From Cyanomargarita calcarea GSE-NOS-MK-12-04C (GTDB lineage: Bacteria; Cyanobacteriota; Cyanobacteriia; Cyanobacteriales; Nostocaceae), in the NCBI GenBank assembly GCA_019359595.1, contig JAHHGZ010000029.1, positions 253 through 64,252 on the forward strand: a stretch of DNA of 64,000 nt, written 5' to 3'. Every line of letters starts with the position of its first letter. Within the stretch, counting starts at the first letter, position 1. Below are positions 10,432 through 64,000 of the stretch, in pieces. The notes under the pieces are model-generated. The model did no database searches, was not told where the DNA came from, and saw nothing but the letters and a program-made list of their open reading frames with translations. The position numbers and the translations under genes were made by a program.

Positions 10432-11913
10432 ATGTACAGTTCCACAGACATTCAAACATACTGGCAACAAATTCAAAACCATCTAAAATCCGAAAAAGCA
10501 TCTTACCGTTACATAAAACTCCTACGTCAAATATTCCTCTTAGGACTCATATTACACAGCATTCACCTAATGGATACTCGTCCAGAAAGACTCCCCTTAG
10601 AAAATGCCCTTTTAGCCCTAGGTATCACATGGCTAGGCTTCCTACCAATGATACTTTATCTATACAATCGCAATCGACCACCGATGCCCTTCTTCCCCCT
10701 AGTAGGGCTATTTTACGCCACAAGTTTTGGCTTACCTAACTTTAATGCCGACAATGTAGGTACAGGTCGTTTAACACTAAATAATGTCACCACTGAATCT
10801 TTAGAATTGACATTAATCGCATTAGCAGGTATGAATATAGCCTACATCCTCTCGAAGTCGTGGCTATTAAAAAATGTTACTCCAATTAAATTAGCTGACA
10901 CATACCCCGTCAAAAAATTAATAAACTTTCTTTGGATATTACTTCTCGCTCATATTTCTTATCTTTATATACCTGCTATCAAAAACATTCCATCTATAGG
11001 TCAACTACTAGACCCATTAGGCTACGTCACCTACGGTTTATTTTATATTCTTTCACACGGCGGATTTTTGCCACAATTTCAGGCTGGATTGCTGTTATTT
11101 GTATTCCTACCAATTGAATTAATTCCCCGTCTGGCTAGTGGACTTTTAGCCGAGATAATGGTTTTCTTTTTATTCATGTTTAACGTTGTTTGGTATACAC
11201 GCAAAAGAATTCCCATAGTTGTTCTCACTATATTAGGAATTGTATATTTAACATTTGCTCCAGTCAAAGAAGACTATCGCAAATTAACCTGGAACAAAAA
11301 TAATCCAGCATCATCTGGTAATCCTATAGAAAAATTGCAAGTATTTGTTGACTTAGCAGTTGATTATCATCAGAAAAACACTTTTGGTTCCGAATCAAAT
11401 AACAGTATTAATGAAAAGCAAAAGAAAAAAGATAAAGATAAACTAGTTAGTCGGTCGGCACACATTATTACTTTATCTGCAGTCGTTGAAGATACTCCAG
11501 ACAGAGTTCCTTACTGGAATGGTGTAACATACTTGCCTGTATTTACAAAATATATTCCACGTCTTGTTTGGCCGGATAAGCCTGCGGAGACGGTAGGAAA
11601 TGAATTTGGTCGTCGCTATAACTACTTACAAAGTGATGACGATGTTACTTCTTATAATCTTCCTTGGATTGTGGAAATGTATGCCAATTTTGGCAGGGTA
11701 GGTGTTGTTGGGGGTATGTCTTTGCTTGGGTTATTGTTAGCTTTTTTGGAACAGAAAATGAATCATCCTGCTATGAATGCTGTGGAGTTTGTATTTGGTG
11801 CTACTTGTTTATTTGGACTTGTTTACCAAGAAGCAAATTTTTCTTTGATAGCTGGCAATATTATGAATCTTTCTGTGGCTTTATACTTGATTTTTAAATT
11901 TATTTCTAAATAA
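10432..11913 (+). CDS. Wzy-like polysaccharide polymerase / O-antigen-ligase-like membrane protein
   Basis: 493 aa polytopic membrane protein with a large hydrophilic loop (Lys-rich NEKQKKKDKDK). It lies directly after wzx inside the GT cluster. Confidence 0.5.
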   Translation: MYSSTDIQTYWQQIQNHLKSEKASYRYIKLLRQIFLLGLILHSIHLMDTRPERLPLENALLALGITWLGFLPMILYLYNRNRPPMPFFPLVGLFYATSFGLPNFNADNVGTGRLTLNNVTTESLELTLIALAGMNIAYILSKSWLLKNVTPIKLADTYPVKKLINFLWILLLAHISYLYIPAIKNIPSIGQLLDPLGYVTYGLFYILSHGGFLPQFQAGLLLFVFLPIELIPRLASGLLAEIMVFFLFMFNVVWYTRKRIPIVVLTILGIVYLTFAPVKEDYRKLTWNKNNPASSGNPIEKLQVFVDLAVDYHQKNTFGSESNNSINEKQKKKDKDKLVSRSAHIITLSAVVEDTPDRVPYWNGVTYLPVFTKYIPRLVWPDKPAETVGNEFGRRYNYLQSDDDVTSYNLPWIVEMYANFGRVGVVGGMSLLGLLLAFLEQKMNHPAMNAVEFVFGATCLFGLVYQEANFSLIAGNIMNLSVALYLIFKFISK

Positions 11914-11991
11914 GATATTTATGTGTTTTTAAACCCATAATTTTCCCATTTTTCTATCTGCCTTCTACCTAATGCTTGAAAACCTAAAAAT

Positions 11992-13170
11992 ATGCAAGAT
12001 ATGCAATTAACAGAAAAAACTATCCATTTATGGCTGCCTAATATGTTTGGGTTTAAGGGAGGTATTCAGGTATATTCAGCCTTTTTGTTGGAGGCAATAC
12101 AAAATATTTACCCGAAAGCTAAGTATGAAGTTTTTTTGAAACATGATGTGAGTCTGCCAGAAAATTACCCGTGTTTACCTGAGACTAAATTTCACTTTAC
12201 AGGCCAGATTCCACTAGCTTTCCGCAGTGCGGCTTTTGCAACCAAATTGATGCTGAGTGGCATTCAAAAGCGACCTAATTTAATTATTTCTAGCCATATT
12301 AATTTTACGGTTGTAGCTTCGACACTCAAGCGTATTTTTGGTATCCCTTACTGGGCTGTTGCTCATGGTGTTGATGCTTGGGATATTACAAACCCGACCC
12401 TAAAAAATGCCTTGGACAATGCCGATCGCATTCTGGCTGTGAGTGGTTATACACGCGATCGCTTTGTCAAAGAACAAAACTTTGAACCCAAAAAGGTTGA
12501 TATTTTACCCAATACTTTCGATCGCAGTCGTTTTCACCCTGCACCAAAGCCAGATTATTTACTCCAGAAACACGGACTCAAACGGGAGCAACCAGTAATA
12601 TTAACTGTTGCTCGACTGTCAAAGGCTGAACAGTATAAGGGGTATGACCAAATTATCAAAGCTCTTCCTGCGATTCGTCAGTATATTCCTGATGTTCGTT
12701 ACATCATTGTCGGCAAAGGAGATGACCGTCCCAGAATTGAACAGCTGATTGCTGAATTAGGTATGGAACATAACGTGACTTTAGCCGGGTTTGTGGCTGA
12801 TGAACAGTTGTGCGATTACTACAATCTCTGCGATGTCTTCGCTATGCCTAGCAAAGGGGAAGGCTTTGGTATCGTCTATTTGGAAGCATTAGCTTGCGGC
12901 AAACCTGTATTAGGTGGCAACCAAGATGGGGCAATTGATGCTCTTTGTCATGGTGAATTAGGGGCACTGGTTAACCCGGATGATACTCAAGCGATCGCTC
13001 AGACGTTGATTCAAATTCTCCAAGGTGTTTATCCCCACCGTTTGATGTATGAGCCTGAGAGGTTACGCTATGAAGTGATTGATACCTATGGATTTGAGCG
13101 GTTTCAAAAAACATTGGCTACACAGTTAGATGGACATTTTCAGTTGAAAAAGATGGGGGTGAAATCATGA
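11992..13170 (+). CDS. glycosyltransferase family 4
   Basis: 392 aa with GEGFGIVYLEALACGKPVLGGNQDGAIDAL. Confidence 0.8.
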   Translation: MQDMQLTEKTIHLWLPNMFGFKGGIQVYSAFLLEAIQNIYPKAKYEVFLKHDVSLPENYPCLPETKFHFTGQIPLAFRSAAFATKLMLSGIQKRPNLIISSHINFTVVASTLKRIFGIPYWAVAHGVDAWDITNPTLKNALDNADRILAVSGYTRDRFVKEQNFEPKKVDILPNTFDRSRFHPAPKPDYLLQKHGLKREQPVILTVARLSKAEQYKGYDQIIKALPAIRQYIPDVRYIIVGKGDDRPRIEQLIAELGMEHNVTLAGFVADEQLCDYYNLCDVFAMPSKGEGFGIVYLEALACGKPVLGGNQDGAIDALCHGELGALVNPDDTQAIAQTLIQILQGVYPHRLMYEPERLRYEVIDTYGFERFQKTLATQLDGHFQLKKMGVKS

Positions 13171-52085: not shown

Positions 52086-53648
52086 TCATGCTGCCTTTTT
52101 GATTAAATCATTAAGATAGCGACGTGTCATTTTGGCAAATAAGCTATTTTTTTGCTGTTTTTTCCCGCTTAGGATTTCTGCGTGTGCATCGTTGAATGCT
52201 TTCTTCAAAGCATAACTTCTAATTTCATCAGCAACATTTTTTAGATAGTCTGGGTTACTAGAAATTGTAGTTACTCGATATTGTGTCGGCGATTTACAAA
52301 TTTTGTCAATAAATTTTTCTTCTGTGCGATACTGAACCCGATCGAGAAAATTTTCTAATTGAAATATTCGTCTAACTTTACACCAAGGTATCCCCCATAA
52401 TTTACCAATCTCCCCTAAAGACATATTCTTTTGATATAAAAGTTGCAAACCTTCATGAAATTGTTGGGCAAAACTTTTGTAACCTTTACTTTTTTTCAAT
52501 CCTTCAATTTTTTGGTAAGTAACTTCTGATATTGCTTGATATAAAACCTCTTCAAATAAGTCATGACAATCCTCTTTTAATTGGTTTAATTCAATCTCCT
52601 CTAAATCGGTGTCAACATAATAATCTAATTCTCGATTGGGAATATAATCATTAGTGGAGTTGTCATACACTTCTATAGGTATAGTTTTGGGACTACCTGT
52701 TCTCCTCGAAAGCGTATCCTGACGTAAGACTTCTGCAATTCTTTTGAGATGATAAATTAGTTTTATATGAGAACTCATGATATTTCGTTGTTGCAACAAA
52801 TCATGCATTTCCTGTAATTGGTTTAGCGTAGGTTCAGAACAACGTCCTTTTTCATCTGATTTGCGTCTGTCTCGACGATAGACTGCATGAAATACCTCTA
52901 AAATTTCCCTGTCTCCTTTTTCAAGATGCGATTCCAAGGAACGGGGAATATGTCCACATAGTAAGGCCCAGTCACTGGGAGTCCGTACCCCCAATTCCCA
53001 TAGAAATAACCTTAAATTTTGATTCTGTTGAGTTAGTCTCCAAGTCCAATTATCCAAGCTTTCATTGGAACTTAAGGTTGGATTAAATTTTCTTAAAATT
53101 TCAACGCTAAAAAACTCTCCTCCTTTAGGTATTGGTCGAGTTGTATCATCTTGATTCAAGATAAGTTGAGTTTGACCTTCACTATCCAACAGTATCTGTT
53201 CTTTACCATCATCATTTAAAACGAATGGAAGCAAATCAATATAGCTAAAAGGGTTCTCAATTTCTTTTTTACAGGTGTGAGGAATTTTTTTGCAGCTAAT
53301 GAGAATCGTCTGAGATACATAGCATCTCAAACAAAGTCCAGCAGAAGCACGATCACGCATATCGGAAGCTGAACAAAAAATCTTCCACACAACAGCTTGA
53401 ATATGCCTGTTTTCTTCTGACGATAGTGTGGGTTGGCTGGCTAGCTGGGGGAATTGTATACTGAAGAACTCCTGTGCTAGGCGGATTGTCCTGGATTTGT
53501 AGCCATCTTTTAGCTTATTGTCTACCACCCTAGGAGAATCAATTATCCACATTATCCAGTATCTTGACGATGCTACCATAGGTTTTAAAATTACCTCGCT
53601 TCTCATCAGACATGACATCAACAGCGAACCTATTTCACCAGAAACCAT
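52086..53648 (-). CDS. hypothetical protein with sigma-70 region-4-like HTH near C-terminus
   Basis: 520 aa. MSLGEIGKLWGIPWCKVRRIFQLE resembles the region-4 HTH (TLEEIG..GVTRERIRQIE). The rest is unassigned, the start is ambiguous (several Met in the first 25 aa) and it is AT-rich. Confidence 0.35.
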   Translation of the reverse strand: MVSGEIGSLLMSCLMRSEVILKPMVASSRYWIMWIIDSPRVVDNKLKDGYKSRTIRLAQEFFSIQFPQLASQPTLSSEENRHIQAVVWKIFCSASDMRDRASAGLCLRCYVSQTILISCKKIPHTCKKEIENPFSYIDLLPFVLNDDGKEQILLDSEGQTQLILNQDDTTRPIPKGGEFFSVEILRKFNPTLSSNESLDNWTWRLTQQNQNLRLFLWELGVRTPSDWALLCGHIPRSLESHLEKGDREILEVFHAVYRRDRRKSDEKGRCSEPTLNQLQEMHDLLQQRNIMSSHIKLIYHLKRIAEVLRQDTLSRRTGSPKTIPIEVYDNSTNDYIPNRELDYYVDTDLEEIELNQLKEDCHDLFEEVLYQAISEVTYQKIEGLKKSKGYKSFAQQFHEGLQLLYQKNMSLGEIGKLWGIPWCKVRRIFQLENFLDRVQYRTEEKFIDKICKSPTQYRVTTISSNPDYLKNVADEIRSYALKKAFNDAHAEILSGKKQQKNSLFAKMTRRYLNDLIKKAA

Positions 53649-54295
53649 TTTTTCTCAATGTTCTGGAGAGCTACATATATATAGTGTTTGGTTTTGTGAA
53701 CTTATACACTTTGAGTCGAATGGCACTCTTGTTGAGCCCTGAAATTGGTGCAAGATATCAGCCTAGTAGCGGGCGCGGCGATCGCGGAGCGTAAAATATG
53801 AAAATAACACATTTTTTTTGTAACCCTTGCTATATATGGATTGTGGAATGTGTTAGTTAGGAGTTAAAACGGACTCAGTACAAGGATTTGAGACAATCAC
53901 GGGTGTCACCCCTGAGTTAATTGACCCACAGCATCATTTATTTCTGGGCTTGTTGGAATTAATGCAAGATGTAATTTTAAATGAGCTGAAACCTCTGTCT
54001 TAGCTAGCTTTAGTAGACCTCAATGTCCAGCCTCACGTAAAAAATTTAGCTAACACAACCCACATAAAGTGCATAAGTCTATTCGACTTGAAACTATTTA
54101 TAAGTAGAAGCAGGAAAAACAAGCAATTATCTTAAGCTTCTCGTTCTGCTCAAAAGAATAGCTCAAATTCTAGCTTTTCTGTCAGACTGGCTGATTTTAG
54201 AATCCGGGAAACCAGTAGTGGAGACGTATTGCCAATTTTTGGAGATGTTGAATTTTTTTCCTTTTGATTACCTAATATTCTACCACATTAATTTT

Positions 54296-54397
54296 GAGAG
54301 GTAAAGACAACAGAACTAAATCCCCCGTGACCCCTATGTTGGGGGTACTATGTTCAACTTTGAATTTTATCCTCCCCCAGAATTGGGGCAGGGGGGC
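54296..54397. repeat. dispersed short repeat, family A copy
   Basis: GTAAAGACAACAGAACTAAATCC ... ATGTTCAACTTTGAATTTTATCCTCCCCCAGAATTGGGGCAGGGGGGC shares both ends with 18175-18304. Confidence 0.7.
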
Positions 54398-54504
54398 TTC
54401 CGAGTCGGGAAAGAGCGCATAACTAATATGGTCGTCCACTAGTTTTCAGACTAATTGCTAGCTTAATCGCTTCTAGAATTTCTCAACTTAAAAGGTTTTC
54501 AACG

Positions 54505-54912
54505 ATGAATCGTAACTTTATCTATCGCATTGTAGAACTGACTAATGCTCAACGTCGTCAGGTCGGTTTGCCAGACCTAAGATTTAACCCTGTGTTAGCA
54601 GCAGCGGCACAGAAACATAGTGCAGACATGGCATTGGAGGATTTTTTCAATCATAAAAGCCCAAATGGAAGCAAGCCTTCGGATCGTGCCCAAGCTGAAG
54701 GATATCCATCAACATATGTCGGTGAAAACATCTATGCAGGTGGTTCCACCCCAGAAAATGCTTTTGAAGGATGGATGAAGAGTGAAGGACATCGTAATAA
54801 CATCCTGAGTCCAAATTATCAAGACATTGGAGTTGGTTACTATTTTCTAGGGAACGATACGGGTAATGTTAATTACAACCATTACTGGACACAATGCTTT
54901 GGCAAACCCTAA
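54505..54912 (+). CDS. CAP/SCP/PR-1-like domain protein
   Basis: 135 aa with HSADMALEDFFNH, GENIYAG and GHRNNIL..IGVGYY, the conserved CAP motifs. No signal peptide is evident. Confidence 0.8.
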   Translation: MNRNFIYRIVELTNAQRRQVGLPDLRFNPVLAAAAQKHSADMALEDFFNHKSPNGSKPSDRAQAEGYPSTYVGENIYAGGSTPENAFEGWMKSEGHRNNILSPNYQDIGVGYYFLGNDTGNVNYNHYWTQCFGKP

Positions 54913-54973
54913 TCAAAGAATTTAGTTGAATTTAACCAAATCACCCCTTTTCTACATTTTAGAGGTTATTACC

Positions 54974-55384
54974 ATGAGCCAAGAATTTATCAATCGTGTT
55001 GTAGAACTCACTAACGTCGAACGTCAGAGAGCAGGTTTACCACCACTGAAATTCAATGGTCGGTTAGCTGTAGCCGCTCAAAAGCACAGTGTAGACATGG
55101 CAATGCGCGACTTTTTCAATCACAAAGGAGAAGATGGTTCATCCCCATTTGACCGTATTAAAGCTACAGGCTATCGATACTCCCGTGCAGCAGAAAACAT
55201 TTCAGCAGGCAACTCTACCCCAGAAGATTCCGTCAAGGGATGGATGAACAGCCAAGGACATCGCAAAAACATTCTGACTCCAGATTATAAGGAAATTGGG
55301 GTTGGTTATTATTTTCTAGGTAATGATACGGGCGACGTTAATTACAAACACTACTGGACACAAGTTTTTGGTACACCTTTGTAA
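54974..55384 (+). CDS. CAP/SCP/PR-1-like domain protein (tandem paralogue)
   Basis: The track ORF opens at 54926, but AGAGGT is followed by ATG at 54974 (MSQEFINRVVELTNVERQRAGL). It is about 55% identical to the upstream CAP protein. Confidence 0.8.
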   Translation: MSQEFINRVVELTNVERQRAGLPPLKFNGRLAVAAQKHSVDMAMRDFFNHKGEDGSSPFDRIKATGYRYSRAAENISAGNSTPEDSVKGWMNSQGHRKNILTPDYKEIGVGYYFLGNDTGDVNYKHYWTQVFGTPL

Positions 55385-55432
55385 TTTGCATTGTCACGGC
55401 AATTCTAGAATTTCATTTTTTGGAGTTCATTT

Positions 55433-55978
55433 ATGTCTTGTACAGTCGGTAATTCATACATTGTCAAGTCGGGAGATACGCTTTTTATCATTGCCCAACA
55501 ACAATTAGGTGATGGTAACCGTTGGCGTGAAATCAAAAAACCAGATGGCACTTCATTTACAGACCAAGACGCTTCTAATTTGCTTGTTGGTCAGGAAATT
55601 TGCATTCCTGGGTCTATTTCTCCACCTCCTCCCTCCGGGAACCAAATCAAGCTAGAAGCCAGATTTTATAGCATGGAAGAAACAAGGTGTCACACACCAG
55701 CCTCTGGTGTACATGGAGTGACCTTGCGGGCAGCGCTTGCAGGTCAATGGCAGTCACAATGTCAAGGTCAAAGCGTTGGACGTTTGCAGTGTGCAGTAGA
55801 CCCAAATGTTATTCCTCTGTTAACAAATTTTACCTTGATGCTTTGGGATGGTAGGCAAGTTCCCGCAGCAGCCTTAGATATAGGTACGGCAATTCTAGGT
55901 AAGAAGATTGATATCTTCGTTGATACCGTTCAAGAAGCGATCAATTTAGGTGTACAGCCTGTTACAGCAATTTTGTAA
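55433..55978 (+). CDS. LysM + 3D (MltA/YabE-like) domain protein
   Basis: 181 aa. The N-terminal LysM is [26 protein letters not shown]. The C-terminus (VDPNVIPLLTNFTLMLWDGRQVPAAALDIGTAILGKKIDIFVDT) resembles 3D domains. Confidence 0.6.
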   Translation: MSCTVGNSYIVKSGDTLFIIAQQQLGDGNRWREIKKPDGTSFTDQDASNLLVGQEICIPGSISPPPPSGNQIKLEARFYSMEETRCHTPASGVHGVTLRAALAGQWQSQCQGQSVGRLQCAVDPNVIPLLTNFTLMLWDGRQVPAAALDIGTAILGKKIDIFVDTVQEAINLGVQPVTAIL

Positions 55979-56140
55979 AAAGTAAATCCCCATAAATTTA
56001 GGGGCTTTTAACCCTTTTTATTTCTTCTTTCTTTTACCTTCTTACAAAGTTAGGCGGGACGGAAACCGACACCGCCTACTTTGCGCTTCTTACTTTTTAC
56101 TTTTGCCTTGTTCAGTAATTTCATTTTTTGGAGTTGATTT

Positions 56141-57064
56141 ATGTCTTGTACAGTTGGTAATTCATACATTGTCAAGTCGGGAGACACGCTTTTTATCATT
56201 GCCCAACAACAATTAGGTGATGGTAACCGTTGGCGTGAAATCAAAAAAACAGATGGTACTCCCTACACAGATGCAGATGCCGCGAATTTACAGGTAGGTC
56301 AGGAAATCTGCATTCCGAACGGGTCCACTCCCCCTCCCCCAACGGGCAATGGTTTCGCGAGTATTGTGTCACGCCAAAGCTACGAAGCCATGTTCCCAAA
56401 CCGTAACGGTCTGTACACCTACGACGGTCTAGTGGCCGCAACACAAAAATACCCAAGCTTCTGCAATGAAGGATCTGACGTGCAACGCAAGCGTGAAGCA
56501 GCTGCTTTTTTAGCAAACATTGCCCACGAAACCACTGGTGGTTGGGATGCTGCTCCTGGTGGACGTTATGCTTGGGGTCTGCACTTTATTGAAGAGCAGA
56601 AACCCCAAGGCATATACTGCGATTCGTCGAATAGTACCTATCCCTGCAAACCCGGCAAATCCTATCACGGTCGCGGCCCTATCCAACTTTCGTGGAACTA
56701 CAACTATGGTCAAGTGGGTCAAGCTTTGGGCCTCGATCTGCTCTCCAACCCTGACCTGGTGAAGTCCGATAGTGCGATCGCCTTCCAAACTGCCTTGTGG
56801 TTCTGGATGACCCCCCAGCAACCCAAGCCTTCTTGTCATGCGGTGATGACTGGTAAATGGACACCTTCTGGCGATGATGCGAGCAAGGGACGTGCGCCTG
56901 GTTTTGGCATGACCATTAATATTATCAACGGTGGTCTTGAATGTGGCATGGGCACCCCTCCTGCCGTGACGGATAGGGTTGGCTTTTACAATCATTTCAC
57001 CCAATTGTTGGGTGTGAACGCGGGCGATAACCTCTACTGCGATCGCATGGGTCCCTACCGCTAA
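56141..57064 (+). CDS. LysM + glycoside hydrolase family 19 chitinase
   Basis: 307 aa with GH19 signatures [12 protein letters not shown] and [14 protein letters not shown]. The N-terminal LysM is nearly identical at nucleotide level to the previous gene. Confidence 0.9.
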
Positions 57065-57643
57065 GGTCTTACAGCAATTCTGTATGAAGATGCACATAAT
57101 CAAGACCCCCCTGTAGTCCCCCCTTGCCAAGGGGGGACGGCGTAGCCGGGGGGTAATATATGCAGCTTCACAAAGAAACGGTCTTACAGCAATTTTCACT
57201 CCCTTTGTACCACAATCCCAAACCTAATCCCCCTCCGGATGTTCAAGAAGGGGGAATATCAAAGCCTCTCTTCTTCTTGAGAGGTATCCCTAGCACTGGA
57301 AAGACCACTGCGTGAACGGGGAAGCAAGCTATGGAGAGAGGTCAAAAATGTGGTTTATTTACCCGAAAATAGCTGTAAAAAAGTTTTTTTGCTGGTGTGC
57401 TAAATATCTGCCTAAGGAACACCTGGTAAAGAGAATTATCCATTGCCCGAAATCCTCTGTAGCTACAATACCCTGCGGGAAGCTCCGCTATATGAATTGT
57501 AGCTACCTTGCCCAAGTTCCTCCAGAAAATCCTTGGTCTGGATCAAACGGTGCTGAGGGAAACTACGGTCTGTGGTATCTCAACGACCAAGGAAAGTATA
57601 CAGACAAGACAAGCCCCTGAGACTATAGCAGCCGATTGGAATT

Positions 57644-58561
57644 ATGAATGACAAAATTGAGACAGACTATTCCGTAATCATGACTAAAAGTAGAAAATTT
57701 TCATCAGCCCTGTCCAGAGCTTCTATCACGCTTTTGATGGTATCACTTTCACTCTTGATCCTGTTTGTCAATCCCCAAGGTGCGATGGCGCAGGAGTCAA
57801 GAGCCACAAGCCATACGACTCGCTTGTCAGTTACTAACCAGTGTGACTTTCCCGTGTGGATGGCAACAATACCTAACGCCAATATAACTCCTTTGTCGGA
57901 TGGTACTGTTAAACTATCCAAGGGTCAATCACATGATTACTCCATACCCAATAGCGGCTGGGCTGGAAGATTCTGGCCCAAAAGCGGGTGTGATTCCAAT
58001 GGCATGAACTGCACCGCAGGAGAAGCAGTACCACCATGTCCTGCAACAGGTTGTCAACCCCCAGCCGACACCAAAGTTGAAATTAACTTTCCCAACCTCT
58101 CTTCAAGGGATAATGCTTGGTATAATATCAGCCTCGTAGACGGGTATAGCCTTCCTGTGGAGATTAAACCTAGAGAAGGAGAGTCAGGTTCATGTATAAC
58201 AACGAATTGTAATCTTTCTCTTAATAGCTGTCCTCAAGATGAAACACAGGGTTTAGGGGATCTTCGAGTCTTCAATGCTGGGAAAGCCGTACAATGCCTG
58301 TCTCCGTGTAAGAAATGGAACTATCCCGCTCCTTTCGGTCTAGGAAAGCCTGAAACCGAAGCACCTGGTATCGATTTATGTTGTCCGTACAACGATGTCG
58401 AGCGGTGTCGCAGGGGACCTGTCGTACAAACAAAGTTTGTCCAGACTGTACATAAAACATGTCCTACTGCTTATGGCTATGCTTACGACGATGAAGCCGG
58501 GTTGCACAATTGTCCAACGCAGAAGAGCTTTGATGTGACGCTTTGTTCAGTAGGACGTTAA
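57644..58561 (+). CDS. thaumatin-like protein (PR-5 family)
   Basis: 305 aa. A signal peptide is present if the start is M13 (57680: MTKSRKFSSALSRASITLLMVSLSLLILFVNPQGAMA). The mature region has the thaumatin Cys framework and motifs (NQCDFPVW, GRFWPKSGC, DGYSLPVEI, CPTAYGYAYDDE). Confidence 0.85.
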   Translation: MNDKIETDYSVIMTKSRKFSSALSRASITLLMVSLSLLILFVNPQGAMAQESRATSHTTRLSVTNQCDFPVWMATIPNANITPLSDGTVKLSKGQSHDYSIPNSGWAGRFWPKSGCDSNGMNCTAGEAVPPCPATGCQPPADTKVEINFPNLSSRDNAWYNISLVDGYSLPVEIKPREGESGSCITTNCNLSLNSCPQDETQGLGDLRVFNAGKAVQCLSPCKKWNYPAPFGLGKPETEAPGIDLCCPYNDVERCRRGPVVQTKFVQTVHKTCPTAYGYAYDDEAGLHNCPTQKSFDVTLCSVGR

Positions 58562-58746
58562 TGGTCTCAGATCAAGATGCTTTATAAACAAGCCTTCTGC
58601 TTGAAAAGTTAATCAGCAGTATTAGCCTTTCAACGAGTGCAGGAGAGTAACAAAAAAATACCTAATTGTTTGTTGTTAGATGAGCATGAGGTTCCAAGTC
58701 GTGGCAACAAGCAATTACCTTTTTCAGTTGTCTTTGGAGGTCAATT

Positions 58747-59889
58747 ATGACGTGTCAATCTGGTCGTTCATACACCATAAAAGTGGGAGATACGCTTTAT
58801 ATCATTGCTCAAAATGAGTTAGGTGATGGTAACCGTTGGCGTGAAATTCTAAAATCAAGCGGTACTTCATTTACAGAAGAAGAGGCTAGTAATTTGCAAC
58901 TGGGTCAGGAGGTCTGCATCCCTCAAACTAATACCACACCTCCCACACCTCCTACACCGTCTCCCAATGAAGGCAAACTATTTGTTGGCTACTTCCAGAG
59001 TTGGTCTGAGAAATGGGGTAGCGAACCCAATCAACTACAACTGGCTAATTTACCGTCTTATGTCAACATGGTGATTGTGTCTTTTATGAAGCCAGACGCT
59101 ACCTACGGAGGTAACCTAAGTTTGGCGGGTACAGGGCTTGATTTTAGTGCAGATGGTTCAGTGGTAAAAGGTGCGATCGCATTGCTCAAGCAAAGAAATC
59201 CCAATACAAAAGTGCTGGTAGCTGTCGGTGGAGCTACTTACCATAATTTTGCTGGTCTGAATGTCGGTGCGATCGCTTCTGTTGTGAAAGACTTTGGATT
59301 TGACGGTGTAGATATTGACTACGAGCCGTTTAATACTGCTCAGTGCTCATCTACAAACGGTAAGATATCCTGCACGTCTGATACTGAGTATCGTCGGATT
59401 GTAAACGAAATTCGCCAAGCACTTCCAAGGCCCTATCTGGTTACGCTTGCCGCTTGGAGCATCGGTGCCTATGGTGAGGGGGAGTGGACAAATTCTAAGC
59501 CTCAAGGTGCGCTGACCGGTTTACTCTTAAATTTGCTTCAGTCGTCTGATGCTAACAAGATTGACCTACTCAATGTCATGTCCTATGATGCCAGTCCCGA
59601 ATACAAACCACAAGAAGCTTTAGTAGCATATCAAAACTATTTCAAGGGAAAAATTGTCATGGGCGTTGAAGTCCCACCAGAAGGATGGGGGGGGCATATT
59701 TACACCATACCCGAAGTTCGTAATCTGGTAAATGCAGTTCGTGAAAAAAATGCAGCAGGGATGATGCTGTGGAGCATTCAAAAACAGCCAAATGGAACGC
59801 CTAGTGATAACAATCCAAGCGCTCAGATGATTGCCAAAGAAATCTGTCAACAATTATCTCTAGGCAATTGCGATCTGCCACTTTCTTAA
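58747..59889 (+). CDS. LysM + glycoside hydrolase family 18 (class III chitinase/hevamine-like)
   Basis: 380 aa with an N-terminal LysM, then a (b/a)8-type sequence with the catalytic FDGVDIDYE (DxxDxDxE). Confidence 0.85.
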   Translation: MTCQSGRSYTIKVGDTLYIIAQNELGDGNRWREILKSSGTSFTEEEASNLQLGQEVCIPQTNTTPPTPPTPSPNEGKLFVGYFQSWSEKWGSEPNQLQLANLPSYVNMVIVSFMKPDATYGGNLSLAGTGLDFSADGSVVKGAIALLKQRNPNTKVLVAVGGATYHNFAGLNVGAIASVVKDFGFDGVDIDYEPFNTAQCSSTNGKISCTSDTEYRRIVNEIRQALPRPYLVTLAAWSIGAYGEGEWTNSKPQGALTGLLLNLLQSSDANKIDLLNVMSYDASPEYKPQEALVAYQNYFKGKIVMGVEVPPEGWGGHIYTIPEVRNLVNAVREKNAAGMMLWSIQKQPNGTPSDNNPSAQMIAKEICQQLSLGNCDLPLS

Positions 59890-59991
59890 GCCAATAATTC
59901 GTACAGAATAACCAAGCATCTCATCTTCCAAAACTTAAAGCGGTCATCTTTTACTTAGCAATAAAACTCAACTTCAAAGAAGGAGAAAATC

Positions 59992-60981
59992 ATGACTAAC
60001 AATGAAGACACAACAAACTTTGATGGATTATTGAAGAGTGGCGATATTTGCACAGGTTTCATATCTGGAGCTACTTTTAAGAATAAGGCAATTCAGTACT
60101 CAGTCGTCGATGGGCTAGCCATTTTTGAAGGCTGCATCTGTCTTGGCACCGTTGAAGAAATGGAGAAGAAAACAGCTGCTATCCGAGCCGGACAAGATAT
60201 TGAAGAGAACCCTCCTACACGCGGTCTATTCATCCCAGGACAGCAGTATCGCTGGACAAATGGTATTGTGCCCTATGAAATCGATCCTAATCTCCCCAAT
60301 CAGAAGCGCGTTACGGATGCGATCGCTCACTGGGAACAAAAGACTCACATCAGGTTCGTGAATCGAACAAGCAACAATGCCAATCAATATCCGAACTACA
60401 TTCGCTTCCGACCTGCCGATGGCTGCTGGTCTCTTATCGGTATGCGAGGGGGCAAGCAAGATATTGGTCTAGCCAATGGTTGCGGCTTGGGTTCTACAAT
60501 CCACGAAATTGGTCATGCATTGGGGCTTTGGCACGAGCAAAGTCGAGAAGATAGAGATAGACACATTCAAATTCATTGGCAGAACATTGAGTCTGACCAT
60601 CAGCATAACTTTAACCAACACATCAATGACGGTGATGACCACGGTTCTTACGATTATGACTCGATCATGCATTACGGATCGACAGCTTTTTCTAAAAACG
60701 GTCAACCAACAATTACAACCGTTTCATCTGGAAGACCCATCGGGCAAAGAAATGGTCTTAGCAATGGTGATATAGCTACTATCCGATTTCTCTATCCAGG
60801 GACAACTCCTCAGTTACGTCCGTACACCATAAAACAGGGAGATACATTGTTTTTAATTGCTGAACGAGAGTTAGGTGATGGTAACCGTTGGCGTGAAATC
60901 ATGAAAACATCTAATGGCGGCTCTTTTACAGAACAGGAGGCTAATAATTTGCAAGTGGGTCAGGTAGTCTACCTTCCTTAA
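59992..60981 (+). CDS. astacin-family (M12A) zinc metalloprotease with C-terminal LysM
   Basis: 329 aa with HEIGHALGLWHEQSREDRD (HExxHxxGxxHE), a Met-turn SIMHY, and a C-terminal Lys[27 protein letters not shown]. Confidence 0.85.
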   Translation: MTNNEDTTNFDGLLKSGDICTGFISGATFKNKAIQYSVVDGLAIFEGCICLGTVEEMEKKTAAIRAGQDIEENPPTRGLFIPGQQYRWTNGIVPYEIDPNLPNQKRVTDAIAHWEQKTHIRFVNRTSNNANQYPNYIRFRPADGCWSLIGMRGGKQDIGLANGCGLGSTIHEIGHALGLWHEQSREDRDRHIQIHWQNIESDHQHNFNQHINDGDDHGSYDYDSIMHYGSTAFSKNGQPTITTVSSGRPIGQRNGLSNGDIATIRFLYPGTTPQLRPYTIKQGDTLFLIAERELGDGNRWREIMKTSNGGSFTEQEANNLQVGQVVYLP

Positions 60982-61305
60982 CTTGAGGATGTATCCTAAC
61001 AGGACTTACGATATTGTCACAAATCATCGAAGGGAAGAGACGCTACAAACCTTTATTTATTTGTGCCGACCTACTTAGTACAGTTTTGCATTAATTCGTA
61101 GCGTTTTTAAACGCAGAGGTACGCAGAGTTTTTTTAAGAGGATTCGCTACGAATTTATGAAATTGTGTACTTAGTCCGGAATCGAAAACTCTCATCGGAA
61201 GAATAAAGTTTCCTAAATAAATTAGCTGGCAAAACTTATCCTGCTAAATTTAGGACTACTGAGACTCTAATGGAAGACAGCTACTCTGTTTTTTAATGAA
61301 CGTAA

Positions 61306-61671
61306 ATGTCAAATAATGTGTCCCGACTTGTAATAGGTGAAATCGTTTTCTCTGAAAAGCTGGATTCATTCTCTGGAGCCAACGTGAATGTATATCTTGA
61401 AGATGTGAGTTCTCTGGATGCTCCCTCTAGGATTGTCGTCAAACAAGTGATTGCTGATATTTCCCATGAAATAGGGACTGAGAATCGGGTTAAATTTGCT
61501 TTAAAAGGTGAGAATTTAAATGAATGGGCAAGTTATTCAATCCGTGTACATATCTCTCTTCATGGAGATGAACAAATCCACCGTGGAGACTATATCACTA
61601 TGGAGAGCTATCCAGTTCTTACATTTGGATATCCAAATCAGGTATTAGTATATGTACAAAAGGTGAAGTAG
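61306..61671 (+). CDS. hypothetical protein
   Basis: 121-aa ORF downstream of the astacin gene with no recognisable motif. Confidence 0.3.
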   Translation: MSNNVSRLVIGEIVFSEKLDSFSGANVNVYLEDVSSLDAPSRIVVKQVIADISHEIGTENRVKFALKGENLNEWASYSIRVHISLHGDEQIHRGDYITMESYPVLTFGYPNQVLVYVQKVK

Positions 61672-61761
61672 CATTTTTAGGGAAGATAACAGCCAAAAAA
61701 TCATCAAGAGAAGTAAATAGCTAGAGAGGGCCTTTTGTAGTGAAACTTTATCTCTTGAAGA

Positions 61762-62010
61762 AGGAAGAAGGAAGAGGTTTTTGAGTTGGAGATTCAGACC
61801 CCAACTCAATACGGGCAACTTGTAGAGGTCGGGGTATTAAACCCCCTGCTCCCGGATAAAAAATGCCTATTTTAGTCACAGAAATCGACGCTTAAATTAG
61901 AGATTAAATTCAGATTAATACTGAATTATTTATCCTCGCCGGGGGGTTAATACCCCAACTCAAAACTTCCTTCTTCCTTCTTCCTTCTTCCTTCTTCCTT
62001 CTTCCTTCAT
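61762..62010. mobile_element. MITE-like inverted-repeat element ending in (TTCCTTC)n microsatellite
   Basis: The left arm is GAAGAAGGAAGAAGGAAGAGGTTTTTGAGTTGG...GGGGTATTAAACCCC. The right arm is GGGGGGTTAATACCCCAACTCAAAACTTCCTTCTTCCTTC... The two are imperfect reverse complements, and the right end carries 6 x TTCCTTC. Confidence 0.5.
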
Positions 62011-62026
62011 TCATTGGTACTTAATT

Positions 62027-64000
62027 GTGAACGAACAACACCATCAAACTTATATAAACCTGATTGAATCTTTGCTAAAATGTAGAAATAGCGAAGAAGT
62101 CTCAGCTATTTTAAATAGTAACCAAGCCATTGTAGATTCTGATTTGGTGCGAATTATGTTAGAAGTCACAGAAAATCTGAAAGCTCAGGGTAACATAGAT
62201 GCTTCTAATTATTTAACAAATATTGCTGTTCATTTGTTAATTGTTATTGGAAATAAGTTATTAGATCAAAAGAATCTTTCCAAGGCTAGAGAGTTGTATG
62301 AGCAAAGTTTGAATATCGCCAATAAAATAGATACCAACTCAAGCAAGTTACTACAGGTAGATATTCTCAATGCTTTAGGAAGCTCTCACAATCCCCCGCA
62401 CGACTGGAACTTAGACAAAGCAATAGAGGTCTGCGAAAAAAGTTTGGGTATTGCTAAAGATATAGGCTACCGTCATGGAGAAGGCGTTGCTTTAATATGC
62501 ATAGGAAAAGCTTATTCTTGGTATCCCGGTCAGAAAAGGAACTTTCCCGAGGCGATAAAGTGCTACGAGCAGGCTAAAGCGATCTTCCAGGAGACAAACA
62601 ATCTTCAAGGGGTATTGGATGCTCTGTGGCCTTTGCAGGATTCTTATTATTATATAAGCAATTATGGCTCGGCGATAAAGTCCAATAATGAGATATTGGA
62701 TATTGCACGACGTTTTAATATACGCACTTTAGAAGCTAGCGCTCTGTTTCAACTGGGGATTAATTACCAAGCCTTAGACCAATTAGCCGAAGCGAAAAAG
62801 TGCTACGAAGAGAGTTTGAACATCGCAAATGAATTAGATATTGAAGTTGGAGGTCAGATCAAGGTAGGTAGTTTGCAAGGTATGGGAAGCTATCACAAGA
62901 GGAAGAGAGAATTAGCCAAGGCGTTGGAGAGCTATAAACAGAGTTTTGATGTTACTGAGAAGATATTAGACATTGCTAAGAACAAAAACGATCGCCAACT
63001 TCAAGAAAGGACTCTACAGGGACAAGCTAATGCTTTGCAACCTCTGGCTGAGATATACTTATCCCAAGGAAACTTAGCTCTGGCATGGGAGTACAACGAA
63101 CGGAGCTTGAAAATTAAGCAAGAACTTCAAGATCAGATCGGTACAGGAAACTCTATAGGCTTTCGGGGAAGTATTTATCTTGTGCAAGGCAAATATACCG
63201 AAGCACTGAGTTACTTTGAGCAGAGTTTGACAATCATGGAAGAAGTCAAAAACGCCTCTGGAAAAGCAAGTACTCTGACTGATATAGGAGTTGCTTACCT
63301 TGGCTTAAATCAAATTGAGAAAGCAGAAAATAGGCTACGCTTGGGGATTGAACTATGGGAGTCTGTTCGGGGAAAATTGGGTGAGCATGATGATTTCCAA
63401 GTATCAATCTTTGAGCAGCAAGCCAGAACCTACCATCTACTGCAAGCTGCTCTCATTGACCAGGAGAAACCCCTGGCAGCTTTGGAAATTGCTGAACGCG
63501 GTCGAGCTAGGGCGCTTGTAGAGTTATTGAGCAGGGGTTTACAGGGGCAATTGGCTGAAAGAGAAATCACTTCTTCAACTCTTCAGCAGATTCAACAAAT
63601 TGCTAAAGAGCAAAATGCCACATTGATTGAATATTCAATTTTGTGGTCTAGAACTTTATTAATTTGGGTTATCAAACCCACTGGGGAAATTGCTTTTCGC
63701 CAAGTTGATCTACAATCCTTATTACAGCAGGCAAATACGTCAGTGGAAGAACTAGTTTCCATTGCCCGTAATTCCATAGGTGTTAGGGGAATGCGCTTTG
63801 TTAGTTCGGATTTAGACGATGGCGATCGCAAGGTTCTTCAAGATGACAACAAACCGTTACAGCTACTTTATGAAATCTTGATCCAACCGATCGCTGACCT
63901 TCTGCCAAAAGATGCAAATGAGCGCGTGATTTTTATCCCTCAAAACAGTCTGTTTCTCGTTCCATTCCCTGCTCTCCAAGATGCTTCTGGTAAATACCTA
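62027..64000 (+). CDS. TPR-repeat + CHAT-domain protein (3' truncated by window end)
   Basis: This gene is not in the ORF track because it has no stop in the window. My translation from GTG 62027 gives about 10 TPR-like repeats (..ALFQLGINYQALDQLAEAKKCYEESLNIANEL..) followed by the CHAT N-terminus (RVIFIPQNSLFLVPFPAL). An alternative start is ATG at about 62155. Confidence 0.65.
   Translation, partial: MNEQHHQTYINLIESLLKCRNSEEVSAILNSNQAIVDSDLVRIMLEVTENLKAQGNIDASNYLTNIAVHLLIVIGNKLLDQKNLSKARELYEQSLNIANKIDTNSSKLLQVDILNALGSSHNPPHDWNLDKAIEVCEKSLGIAKDIGYRHGEGVALICIGKAYSWYPGQKRNFPEAIKCYEQAKAIFQETNNLQGVLDALWPLQDSYYYISNYGSAIKSNNEILDIARRFNIRTLEASALFQLGINYQALDQLAEAKKCYEESLNIANELDIEVGGQIKVGSLQGMGSYHKRKRELAKALESYKQSFDVTEKILDIAKNKNDRQLQERTLQGQANALQPLAEIYLSQGNLALAWEYNERSLKIKQELQDQIGTGNSIGFRGSIYLVQGKYTEALSYFEQSLTIMEEVKNASGKASTLTDIGVAYLGLNQIEKAENRLRLGIELWESVRGKLGEHDDFQVSIFEQQARTYHLLQAALIDQEKPLAALEIAERGRARALVELLSRGLQGQLAEREITSSTLQQIQQIAKEQNATLIEYSILWSRTLLIWVIKPTGEIAFRQVDLQSLLQQANTSVEELVSIARNSIGVRGMRFVSSDLDDGDRKVLQDDNKPLQLLYEILIQPIADLLPKDANERVIFIPQNSLFLVPFPALQDASGKYL

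Follow-up and report, generated by a model that had tools for sequence, protein, structure and literature searches.

Why should four neighboring genes of a cyanobacterium, which encode otherwise different enzymes, share the same 29 nucleotides, and how would these enzymes reach their substrates if they have no signal peptide? Both questions are raised by a 64,000-nt stretch of the genome of Cyanomargarita calcarea GSE-NOS-MK-12-04C (contig JAHHGZ010000029.1, positions 253 to 64,252 of the forward strand), which was analyzed as a whole and is called the window here. A preliminary description attributed the repeated 29-mer, which lies within a LysM module in each gene, to a mobile cassette being recombined onto different hydrolase domains. 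We consider it probable instead that the four LysMs are paralogous copies of one LysM (CBM50) subfamily, and that this subfamily is the glycan-targeting module of a conserved island of genes resembling those of plant pathogenesis-related (PR) proteins.

The four genes, g1 to g4, are as follows (GH, glycoside hydrolase family; leaderless, without a signal peptide; Cys-LysM, a LysM with conserved cysteines).

55433..55978, + strand: g1, leaderless Cys-LysM (residues 1-59), a proline-rich linker and a 3D/double-psi beta-barrel domain (Pfam)
56141..57064, + strand: g2, leaderless Cys-LysM and a plant-like 'loopful' GH19 chitinase, 307 amino acids (aa) in all (Pfam GH19, 306 bits)
58747..59889, + strand: g3, leaderless Cys-LysM and a GH18 domain (Pfam)
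59992..60981, + strand: g4, leaderless LegP-like astacin metalloprotease with a C-terminal LysM at 60811-60978 (Pfam astacin, E = 1.4e-53)

The 29-Nucleotide Core

The 29-mer, TTAGGTGATGGTAACCGTTGGCGTGAAAT, has exactly four matches in the window, all on the + strand, and the count is the same when up to three mismatches are allowed. No match appeared when the window was shuffled 100 times. The four copies are located as follows.

55505-55533, + strand: copy 1, codons L25-I34 of g1
56213-56241, + strand: copy 2, in g2
58819-58847, + strand: copy 3, in g3
60871-60899, + strand: copy 4, in g4

The preliminary description had the number of the copies right and placed the one at 58819 correctly; the positions that it gave for the others (55527, 56234 and 60877) are 22, 21 and 6 nt off. 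All four copies are in frame, lie within LysM modules as defined by Pfam and encode the same peptide. A tblastn search of the window found no LysM copy beyond these four, and the 29-mer does not occur in the window outside LysM coding sequence. Judged from the sequences, what the 29-mer encodes is the invariant peptide of this LysM subfamily, and it is not the mark of a cassette. The run would be 29 nt long because the peptide is invariant over just that stretch. The identity of all four copies would follow from conservative codon choice, both in the genome and in the family, together with occasional short-tract gene conversion; such micro-homogenization is a plausible part of the cause.

Only eight codons of the core are open to synonymous change. 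Measured against genome codon usage, the nine core codons in a single gene have P = 5e-4. However, genome codon usage is the wrong null for the core, and module-wide codon identity is the one that fits. Throughout the module, conserved residues have the identical codon between paralogues at 50-79% of positions; for example, g1 and g3 have the same codon at 28 of the 35 conserved positions, where genome codon usage predicts 13.8. Given the module-wide rate, the identity of all eight degenerate core codons has a hypergeometric P of 0.013-0.19 per gene pair, and the synonymous identity of the core barely exceeds the module-wide level.

A degenerate scan of 185,579 species genomes for the core peptide found 81 sites in 77 loci, with many synonymous variants, and the exact 29-mer was in none of these genomes. 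Low-GC cyanobacteria are one to six synonymous changes away from it, and the cores of paralogues in other genomes differ from each other at zero to five synonymous sites. Among 31 cyanobacterial N-terminal modules, the frequency of the top codon is 0.61-0.97 per core codon, which gives the exact core a P of ~0.048 per member. The nearest relative, a metagenome contig with 93-97% DNA identity to the window (L078; L and P numbers are our own labels), already carries the same 29-mer in its three LysMs, which makes it impossible to date any of the events.

Gene Conversion between g1 and g2

The situation is different for the first two genes, where near-identity extends well beyond the core and into the sequence ahead of the start codon.

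55409..55540, + strand: gene-conversion tract, g1 copy (leader and codons 1-36), corresponding to 56117-56248
56117..56248, + strand: gene-conversion tract, g2 copy, corresponding to 55409-55540

The tract has three mismatches in 132 nt, 24 nt of which are 5' of the ATG, as compared to 17 mismatches in the 60 nt that follow (Fisher p = 2e-7); in the g1/g2 alignment upstream of 55409 there is no homology. In codons 1-34, g1 and g2 have an identity of 0.98 to each other and of 0.90 and 0.87 to their best orthologues. In codons 35-59 the relation flips, with 0.75 between g1 and g2 and 0.80 and 0.81 to the orthologues. Within the tract, g2 has four mismatches to g1 and six to its L078 orthologue, and four of these six cluster in codons 11-13, where g2 equals g1. 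The g1 tract is identical to its counterpart in L078. There is thus good support for recent conversion within the g1/g2 pair, or for some equivalent copying by recombination, in which the translation-initiation region was included. The preliminary description had described this shared segment as about 150 bp with about 25 nt upstream of the ATG, and it had proposed that a duplication or conversion also copied the initiation region. Both statements essentially hold for the sharp-edged 132-nt tract that includes the leader.

Similar homogenization within a genome, often with the leader, is present in three other loci (L021, L032 and L072). The nearest neighbor of a module is from the same genome in eight of 29 cases, a level that was reached in none of 2000 permutations. 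We regard the g1/g2 tract as a clean natural case of conversion homogenizing one domain module and its ribosome-binding leader between otherwise unrelated genes.

Whether conversion also reached g3 and g4 is more difficult to decide. Perhaps it did not, and the core is identical simply since its amino acids do not vary and ancestral or preferred codons were kept, with conversion limited to g1 and g2. We rate this explanation as possible, at somewhat less than an even chance. It agrees with the hypergeometric P of 0.13-0.19 for most gene pairs, with orthologues of other genera that are just one to three synonymous changes from the 29-mer, with the use of the commonest codons of the family (AAC excepted) and with the same core in L078. 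It is difficult to reconcile with the exact core being present in three independent lineages (g1/g2, g3 and g4), the joint P of which, ~0.048 squared, is ~2e-3 from family frequencies. Paralogues elsewhere, moreover, differ in the core at three to five synonymous sites (L007/L075, L017/L060 and L004/L052). Finally, all four copies in the window encode Gly28 by GGT, which is found only here, as the g3 orthologues have GGG, GGG and GGA and the g4 orthologues have GGC, GGC, GGC and GGA. Conversion of the core in g3 and g4 is only suggestive.

The Leader and the g1-g2 Spacer

The leader that was copied along with the module has a history of its own.

55391..55432, + strand: g1 leader, consisting of decayed terminal codons of a 3D gene, gtcacggcaattcta (V-T-A-I-L), and of the conserved spacer AATTTCATTTTTTGGAGTTCATTT with a Shine-Dalgarno sequence

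In many genera LysM-GH19 begins 22 nt after LysM-3D, with the junction reading ...GTCACAGCAATTTTGTAA-TTTCATTTTTTGGAGGTAATTT-ATG. The g1 leader aligns with this junction of 3D stop codon, 22 nt and ATG of LysM-GH19 in L020, L037, L059 and L072. Thus, the sequence 5' of g1, attGTCACGGCAATTCTAGAATTTCATTTTTTGGAGTTCATTT, derives from a copy of the junction that has decayed but still has the V-T-A-I-L of the 3D gene, and this relic is found ahead of the 3D genes of L021 and L037, too. By this comparison, the leader is an ancestral junction element that was copied in front of g1, which is more than a by-product of recent conversion. A TGTAAT in the junction overlaps the 3D stop codon and may belong to an internal promoter, unless the leader serves only for translational coupling.

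In the lineage of the window, ~140 nt (55979-56116) were inserted into the usual 22-nt spacer between the 3D and GH19 genes. The insert has a terminator-like hairpin at 56000-56016 and an inverted repeat at ~56050-56080 (TAGGCGG...CCGCCTA), and it may uncouple g2 from transcription of g1.

One could also suppose that the 29-mer, with the leader, has a function at the nucleic-acid level, for example as part of an mRNA structure, as a small-RNA target or as a protein-binding site. The leader is indeed conserved across genera, as are some codons (Gly14 is GGA in 28/28 and Cys3 is TGT in 31/31). However, RNAalifold with 16 homologues arrived at a consensus energy of -0.86 kcal/mol without any compensatory pairs, the folding of the g1 leader plus module is like that of shuffled sequences (z = -0.61), and Rfam returned only one chance-level match and none that is credible. 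Furthermore, the g4 module is at the 3' end of its gene, where a 5' function cannot apply, the codon identity of the LysM equals that of the catalytic domain in typical orthologue pairs, and synonymous variants are frequent in other species. We therefore consider such an element highly improbable. Pairing of AUUUCA in the leader with UGAAAU in the core, or another conserved structure, was considered as well and rejected, as it had no structural support.

The Island and Its Relatives

The four LysM genes are accompanied by the following genes.

54505..54912, + strand: CAP/PR-1-like gene 1 (PF00188, E = 3.9e-25), N-terminus MNRNFIYRIVELT without a hydrophobic segment
54974..55384, + strand: CAP/PR-1-like gene 2 (PF00188, E = 5.7e-28), without a signal peptide
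57644..58561, + strand: thaumatin-like (PR-5-like) gene, 16 cysteines (PF00314, E = 3.6e-35), the sole cluster member with a signal peptide
61306..61671, + strand: YscW-like small protein (PF09619, E = 6.8e-6), downstream of the astacin gene

The gene order in the window is thus CAP, CAP, LysM-3D, LysM-GH19, thaumatin, LysM-GH18, astacin-LysM and YscW-like. The mechanical open reading frame (ORF) of the second CAP gene starts from a TTG at 54926, but the ATG at 54974 is the likelier start, since the resulting MSQEFINRVVELT resembles the start of the first CAP protein. The product of g3 is 100% identical to KME60_23530 of the metagenome-assembled genome of C. calcarea, a member of the Nostocales. 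The GH19 domain of g2 has structural matches among plant class I/II chitinases (E = 1e-90 to 1e-75) and contains the AHETTGG catalytic motif ('IAHETTGGW' in the translation). The g4 astacin scores 324 bits against NCBIfam LegP (cut-off 300), LegP being a leaderless effector protease of the Legionella Dot/Icm system.

The same gene set and order are found in many filamentous cyanobacteria, among them Nostoc, Calothrix, Scytonema, Tolypothrix, Lyngbya, Oscillatoria, Microcoleus and Limnoraphis, and LysM-3D, LysM-GH19 and astacin-LysM are conserved architectures in many genera of the Nostocales and Oscillatoriales. This conservation of architectures and order across genera implies that the fusions are old and not recent shuffles. 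Longer loci of relatives additionally hold GH17, GH64, GH30, malectin-GH26 and alpha-1,3-glucanase genes. Orthologues of g4 with the same ...VVYLP* end are present in L001, L021, L071 and L075, and the pair of astacin and YscW-like genes recurs in these four and in L078.

One gene of the window has a more recent history. L078 has no g3 and has retained GH17, and the thaumatin and astacin genes are adjacent both in L078 and in L071 (Tolypothrix). This adjacency indicates that g3 is a lineage-specific insertion, and the existence of LysM-GH18 orthologues elsewhere (P0310, P0312 and P0313) indicates that it arrived already fused.

Several smaller observations on the locus may be listed here. The inserted segment, g3 with its own leader, corresponds to 1.4 kb at 58564-59960, and its boundaries have no obvious flanking repeats. 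Positions 57080-57640 are the remnant of a deleted GH17 gene, with matching pieces at 57180-57235 and 57448-57509; in L078 a 345-aa GH17 lies between GH19 and thaumatin. A G/C-rich palindromic element (CCCCCCTGTAGTCCCCCCTTGCCAAGGGGGGACGG...) is at the junction of this remnant, at ~57100-57157. In L079 (Calothrix sp. NIES-2100), DDE transposase genes follow directly after LysM-GH19 (11695-13036), which is consistent with the island having been rearranged or being mobile as a unit in some genomes. The N-terminal region of the g4 astacin (~85 residues) holds 'IFEGCICLG', possibly a cysteine-switch-like pro-segment, and the astacin is always trailed by the leaderless YscW-like protein, possibly an inhibitor or a chaperone. 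On the two sides of the island, 53649-54504 (~0.85 kb) and 61672-64000 (~2.3 kb) have no ORFs above ~80 aa. The genes next to the island are unrelated to it and include STAND/WD40, kinase and DUF1822 genes and similar ones.

Module Swapping over Evolutionary Time

Even if the fusions are old, the LysM modules have changed partners. For example, the g2 LysM has a codon identity of 0.78-0.87 to the LysM of 273-aa GH19 genes from Nostoc and Calothrix, while the value for the catalytic domains in the same comparison is as low as 0.48-0.52 (p = 1e-3 to 2e-6). Orthologue pairs of the ordinary kind show no such difference in divergence between the LysM and the catalytic domain (0.59-0.67 versus 0.53-0.61), and a special synonymous constraint on the LysM relative to the catalytic domain is not seen in them.

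The architectures of orthologues point in the same direction. Orthologues of the 3D protein have an N-terminal Cys-LysM, an N-terminal classical LysM that is free of cysteines or a C-terminal classical LysM. Those of the GH18 protein consist of the bare domain (311 aa), follow a signal peptide, in some cases together with CBM2, or carry a LysM. CAP genes of this family carry a leaderless Cys-LysM elsewhere (P0131, P0133 and P0273), and the 1220-aa P0096 combines a leaderless Cys-LysM with GH18, a repeat region and a C-terminal toxin-like Endonuclease_NS_2 domain. A search of representative proteins for the module gave an output dominated by multi-LysM proteins, and one with the 61-aa module profile gave only short or truncated proteins. 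Swapping of LysM modules did take place, if long ago and in episodes; over long times, modules were exchanged, moved to another position, acquired or dropped. Most of the fusions were probably inherited vertically with the island.

What remains, then, of the mobile cassette, marked by the 29-mer and recently recombined onto different hydrolase genes? Its appeal is easy to see, as four identical 29-mers lie inside 5.5 kb, the g1/g2 tract takes in the leader, LysM has many partners and g3 is a lineage-specific insertion. However, once the core is left aside, g1/g2, g3 and g4 have modules with only 55-70% protein identity and ~72-78% DNA identity, and copies as diverged as this are not recent. 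In addition, distant genera show the same architectures in the same order, the g3 orthologues were already fused, neither repeats nor mobility genes flank the modules and the 29-mer is confined to LysM coding sequence. The cassette is thus largely refuted, and we would assign it a very small likelihood. The part of the shuffling claim that stands is the exchange of LysM among catalytic partners.

The LysM Module and Its Cysteines

Three of the four modules are recognized by PF01476 above its cut-off of 20.9 bits, with scores of 28.1 for g1, 29.2 for g2 and 21.5 for g4. The g3 module scores 17.9 bits, which is under the cut-off, and is a clear homologue of the others (tblastn E = 1e-25). An AlphaFold model of g1 has a mean predicted local distance difference test (pLDDT) score of 87, with 82-89 in the LysM module. 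The modeled LysM has the order beta-alpha-alpha-beta (strand 7-10, helices 17-25 and 28-33, strand 55-58) and an additional short helix, 44-48, within a long loop. The 3D domain of g1 models as a double-psi beta-barrel, and its fold matches YuiC, MltA and expansins. Solved structures that best match the module profile include chitinase LysMs of a fern, Volvox and Equisetum.

The cysteines of the module come and go in pairs. Cys3 and Cys57, the latter belonging to a C-terminal 'CIP', are both present in 136 modules and both absent in 148, with three discordant; for Cys5 and Cys39 the numbers are 16, 267 and four, the discordant ones being mostly alignment shifts, and both sets of counts ignore kinship. 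Both cysteines are absent from the g4 LysM. Paired losses also occur among close sequences, as in MTFACG...PDCT...VYLP, the astacin-type module, P0012 and P0152. Modules with Cys3 and Cys57 begin at residue 1 of the protein in 130 of 137 cases. The pattern suggests one or two disulfides, Cys3-Cys57 and in some members Cys5-Cys39, and such putative disulfides would mean that the LysM works outside the reducing cytoplasm, in an oxidizing compartment. Disulfide-containing chitin-binding LysMs are known from the chitinase PrChi-A and from fungi (PMC4392113). A cyanobacterial LysM subfamily can thus be defined by a start at residue 1 and by covarying cysteine pairs.

Absence of Signal Peptides

The preliminary description noted three N-termini of the form M-[ST]-C-x-x-G-x-S-Y (e.g., MTCQSGRSY) with no signal peptide, and it pointed out that alternative upstream starts might supply one. 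We judged the absence of signal peptides from the start position, the Shine-Dalgarno sequence and the hydrophobicity over the first 60 residues (Kyte-Doolittle, 12-residue window). In each of g1 to g4, the start is the first ATG, GTG or TTG past the upstream in-frame stop codon, with a GGAG or GGAGG Shine-Dalgarno sequence 7-9 nt upstream. Upstream starts that supply signal peptides are therefore ruled out, as none exists in frame. The maximum hydrophobicity is 1.1-1.8 for g1 to g4 and 2.9-3.1 for the thaumatin, where the hydrophobic segment is at residue 31. Homologues in ~25 genomes have the same start behind a Shine-Dalgarno sequence, often right after the stop codon of the preceding gene. 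The observation on the N-termini is thus borne out.

The absence of signal peptides is a property of nearly the whole island. In the window, L078, L079 and L081, the GH64, GH17, GH18, GH26, alpha-1,3-glucanase, astacin and CAP proteins all have no signal peptide, and the thaumatin gene is the only island gene with one. Many of the leaderless members keep conserved cysteine pairs. Because almost the whole island has no signal peptides, release by cell damage or lysis, or by a non-classical route, is most likely. We would rank release by damage or lysis, or action on invading hyphae, first, non-classical export second and a purely intracellular role third.

Possible Function of the Island

Presumably, the LysM would direct the enzymes to chitin or other N-acetylglucosamine polymers of fungal walls. 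In this mechanism the module would be stabilized by its one or two disulfides and would act outside the reducing cytoplasm, after the enzymes had been released through cell damage, lysis or a non-classical route. We infer chitin binding by the LysM from its homology and from the presence of fungal-wall enzymes in the same island, and an antifungal role of the island would go along with it. By analogy, the locus would be a fungal-cell-wall-directed island that parallels the plant PR set, with CAP for PR-1, GH17 for PR-2, GH19 for PR-3, thaumatin for PR-5 and GH18 for PR-8.

The main alternative concerns the target. The enzymes could instead act on bacterial peptidoglycan, either that of the cell's own wall, as in remodeling or in hormogonium or akinete development, or that of competitors, with the LysM as an anchor. 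LysM and 3D domains are classically related to peptidoglycan, the matches of the 3D fold to YuiC and MltA fit this, there are weak NCBIfam matches of the LysM/NlpD type and GH19 includes endolysins too (PMC8547705). Nevertheless, this target seems unlikely to us. The GH19 of g2 groups with plant-type chitinases (E ~1e-90), the GH17, GH64, GH30, GH26, alpha-1,3-glucanase and thaumatin proteins in the islands of relatives have no bacterial-wall substrate, and the closest solved LysMs include the chitinase LysMs mentioned above.

Several observations weigh against the reading of the four LysMs as a subfamily of paralogues that serves the island outside the reducing cytoplasm and is occasionally homogenized. 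As described above, the eight degenerate core codons are hardly more alike than the rest of the module, and the core was already the same in L078. The conversion component in g3 and g4 hangs mainly on one codon, Gly28. Across genomes, 17 of 25 modules still track their catalytic partner, and so, homogenization would be episodic. A cytoplasmic location would speak against the disulfides. Finally, there are no secretion, export, lysis or holin-like genes near the island; among ORFs with a hydrophobic segment in 53600-62500, only the thaumatin is independent, and there is no holin-like or spanin-like ORF.

The preferred reading, a LysM subfamily that targets glycans for a PR-like island, can be extended into a more specific proposal, which we offer as a tentative one that is rather doubtful in its entirety. 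Filamentous cyanobacteria would keep a store of leaderless PR-like enzymes inside their cells, for use against fungi on damage or via a new release route. The stapled LysM of these enzymes would target chitin, become active only in an oxidizing environment and be homogenized by conversion, and the astacin would come with a putative inhibitor. The fungal targets might be chytrid rhizoids, hyphae or lichen partners.

The 29-mer itself is rather ordinary, since it encodes the part of a domain that does not vary, with some homogenization among paralogues added, and the leaderless PR-like island as a whole is the more interesting issue. Should the enzymes act outside the cell, there must be a way of release in cyanobacteria that has not been described yet. 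Should their action be limited to the time after damage, a multicellular bacterium would have an antifungal defense that is triggered by damage. Either outcome bears on interactions between cyanobacteria and fungi, such as chytrid parasitism and lichens. Culturable relatives, such as Calothrix sp. NIES-2100 (L079) and Nostoc punctiforme NIES-2108 (L028), have the same genes.

Comparison with Known Systems

The conversion tracts resemble the situation in tufA and tufB, bacterial paralogues that are under concerted evolution through short-tract gene conversion. In both cases there are sharp-edged tracts of near-identity in diverged paralogues, and paralogues are closer to each other than to orthologues. 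In the LysM genes, however, only one domain module and its ribosome-binding leader are homogenized, and the remainders of the genes are unrelated.

As to release, the ChiWXYZ system of Serratia ('type 10 secretion') provides holin/endopeptidase-dependent release of chitinases. Like the island enzymes, the chitinolytic enzymes concerned have no signal peptides, and those released by ChiWXYZ act outside the cell. The cyanobacterial cluster differs in that no holin-like or spanin-like ORF is in it or adjoins it; a wall-opening role of the LysM-3D protein would be conceivable.

The closest known relatives are the cyanobacterial LysM-GH19 proteins (CHIT 11-I and 11-II of the GH19 Engineering Database), which have an N-terminal LysM and GH19 and are found mainly in Nostocales. 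LysM is attached to GH19 chitinases in cyanobacteria only, and it was proposed to have joined one GH19 lineage first and then to have recombined onto a paralogue in the same organism (PMC8547705). Our codon comparison supports such a recombination between paralogues. That study dealt with GH19 only, whereas the leaderless Met-Ser/Thr-Cys start and the covarying cysteine pairs are described here, as are the occurrence of the module in 3D, GH18, CAP and astacin genes as well, the conservation of the island and the conversion tracts at the DNA level. Apart from that study, a search of the literature found no cyanobacterial cluster of LysM, chitinase and thaumatin genes, no exoproteome evidence and no chitinases in chytrid defense.

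PrChi-A, a LysM-GH18 protein of Pteris ryukyuensis, likewise has an N-terminal LysM on a chitinase, and its LysM binds chitin and adds to the antifungal activity (PMC4392113). PrChi-A and the 'fungal-specific' LysMs also have cysteines within the LysM, which form disulfides, one of them tying an N-terminal extension to the last strand, and 4pxv, 5bum and 5k2l are among the best solved-structure matches to our module profile. In contrast to the cyanobacterial module, their cysteines are at other positions and they are secreted via signal peptides, and the sequence relation is a distant one (E = 1e-6). The cyanobacterial module, for its part, has a 'GDGNRW' helix of the YgaU/phage type and a longer loop.

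The broadest parallel is with plants. Class I chitinases (PR-3, hevein/CBM18 plus GH19) and PR-4 proteins (hevein plus a barwin double-psi beta-barrel) have, as the LysM proteins would, a small and disulfide-rich N-terminal module for chitin binding ahead of GH19 or of a double-psi beta-barrel, and the GH19 domain of g2 is homologous to that of plant class I/II chitinases. The neighbors in the island also have putative counterparts in the plant PR set, with CAP (PR-1), GH17 (PR-2, in relatives), thaumatin (PR-5) and GH18 (PR-8). The differences are that a LysM takes the place of hevein and that the 3D domain, which has no more than its class of fold in common with barwin, is a different domain. 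Furthermore, the cyanobacterial proteins have no signal peptides, the thaumatin excepted, and their genes, unlike those of the plant PR proteins, are clustered in a bacterial island.

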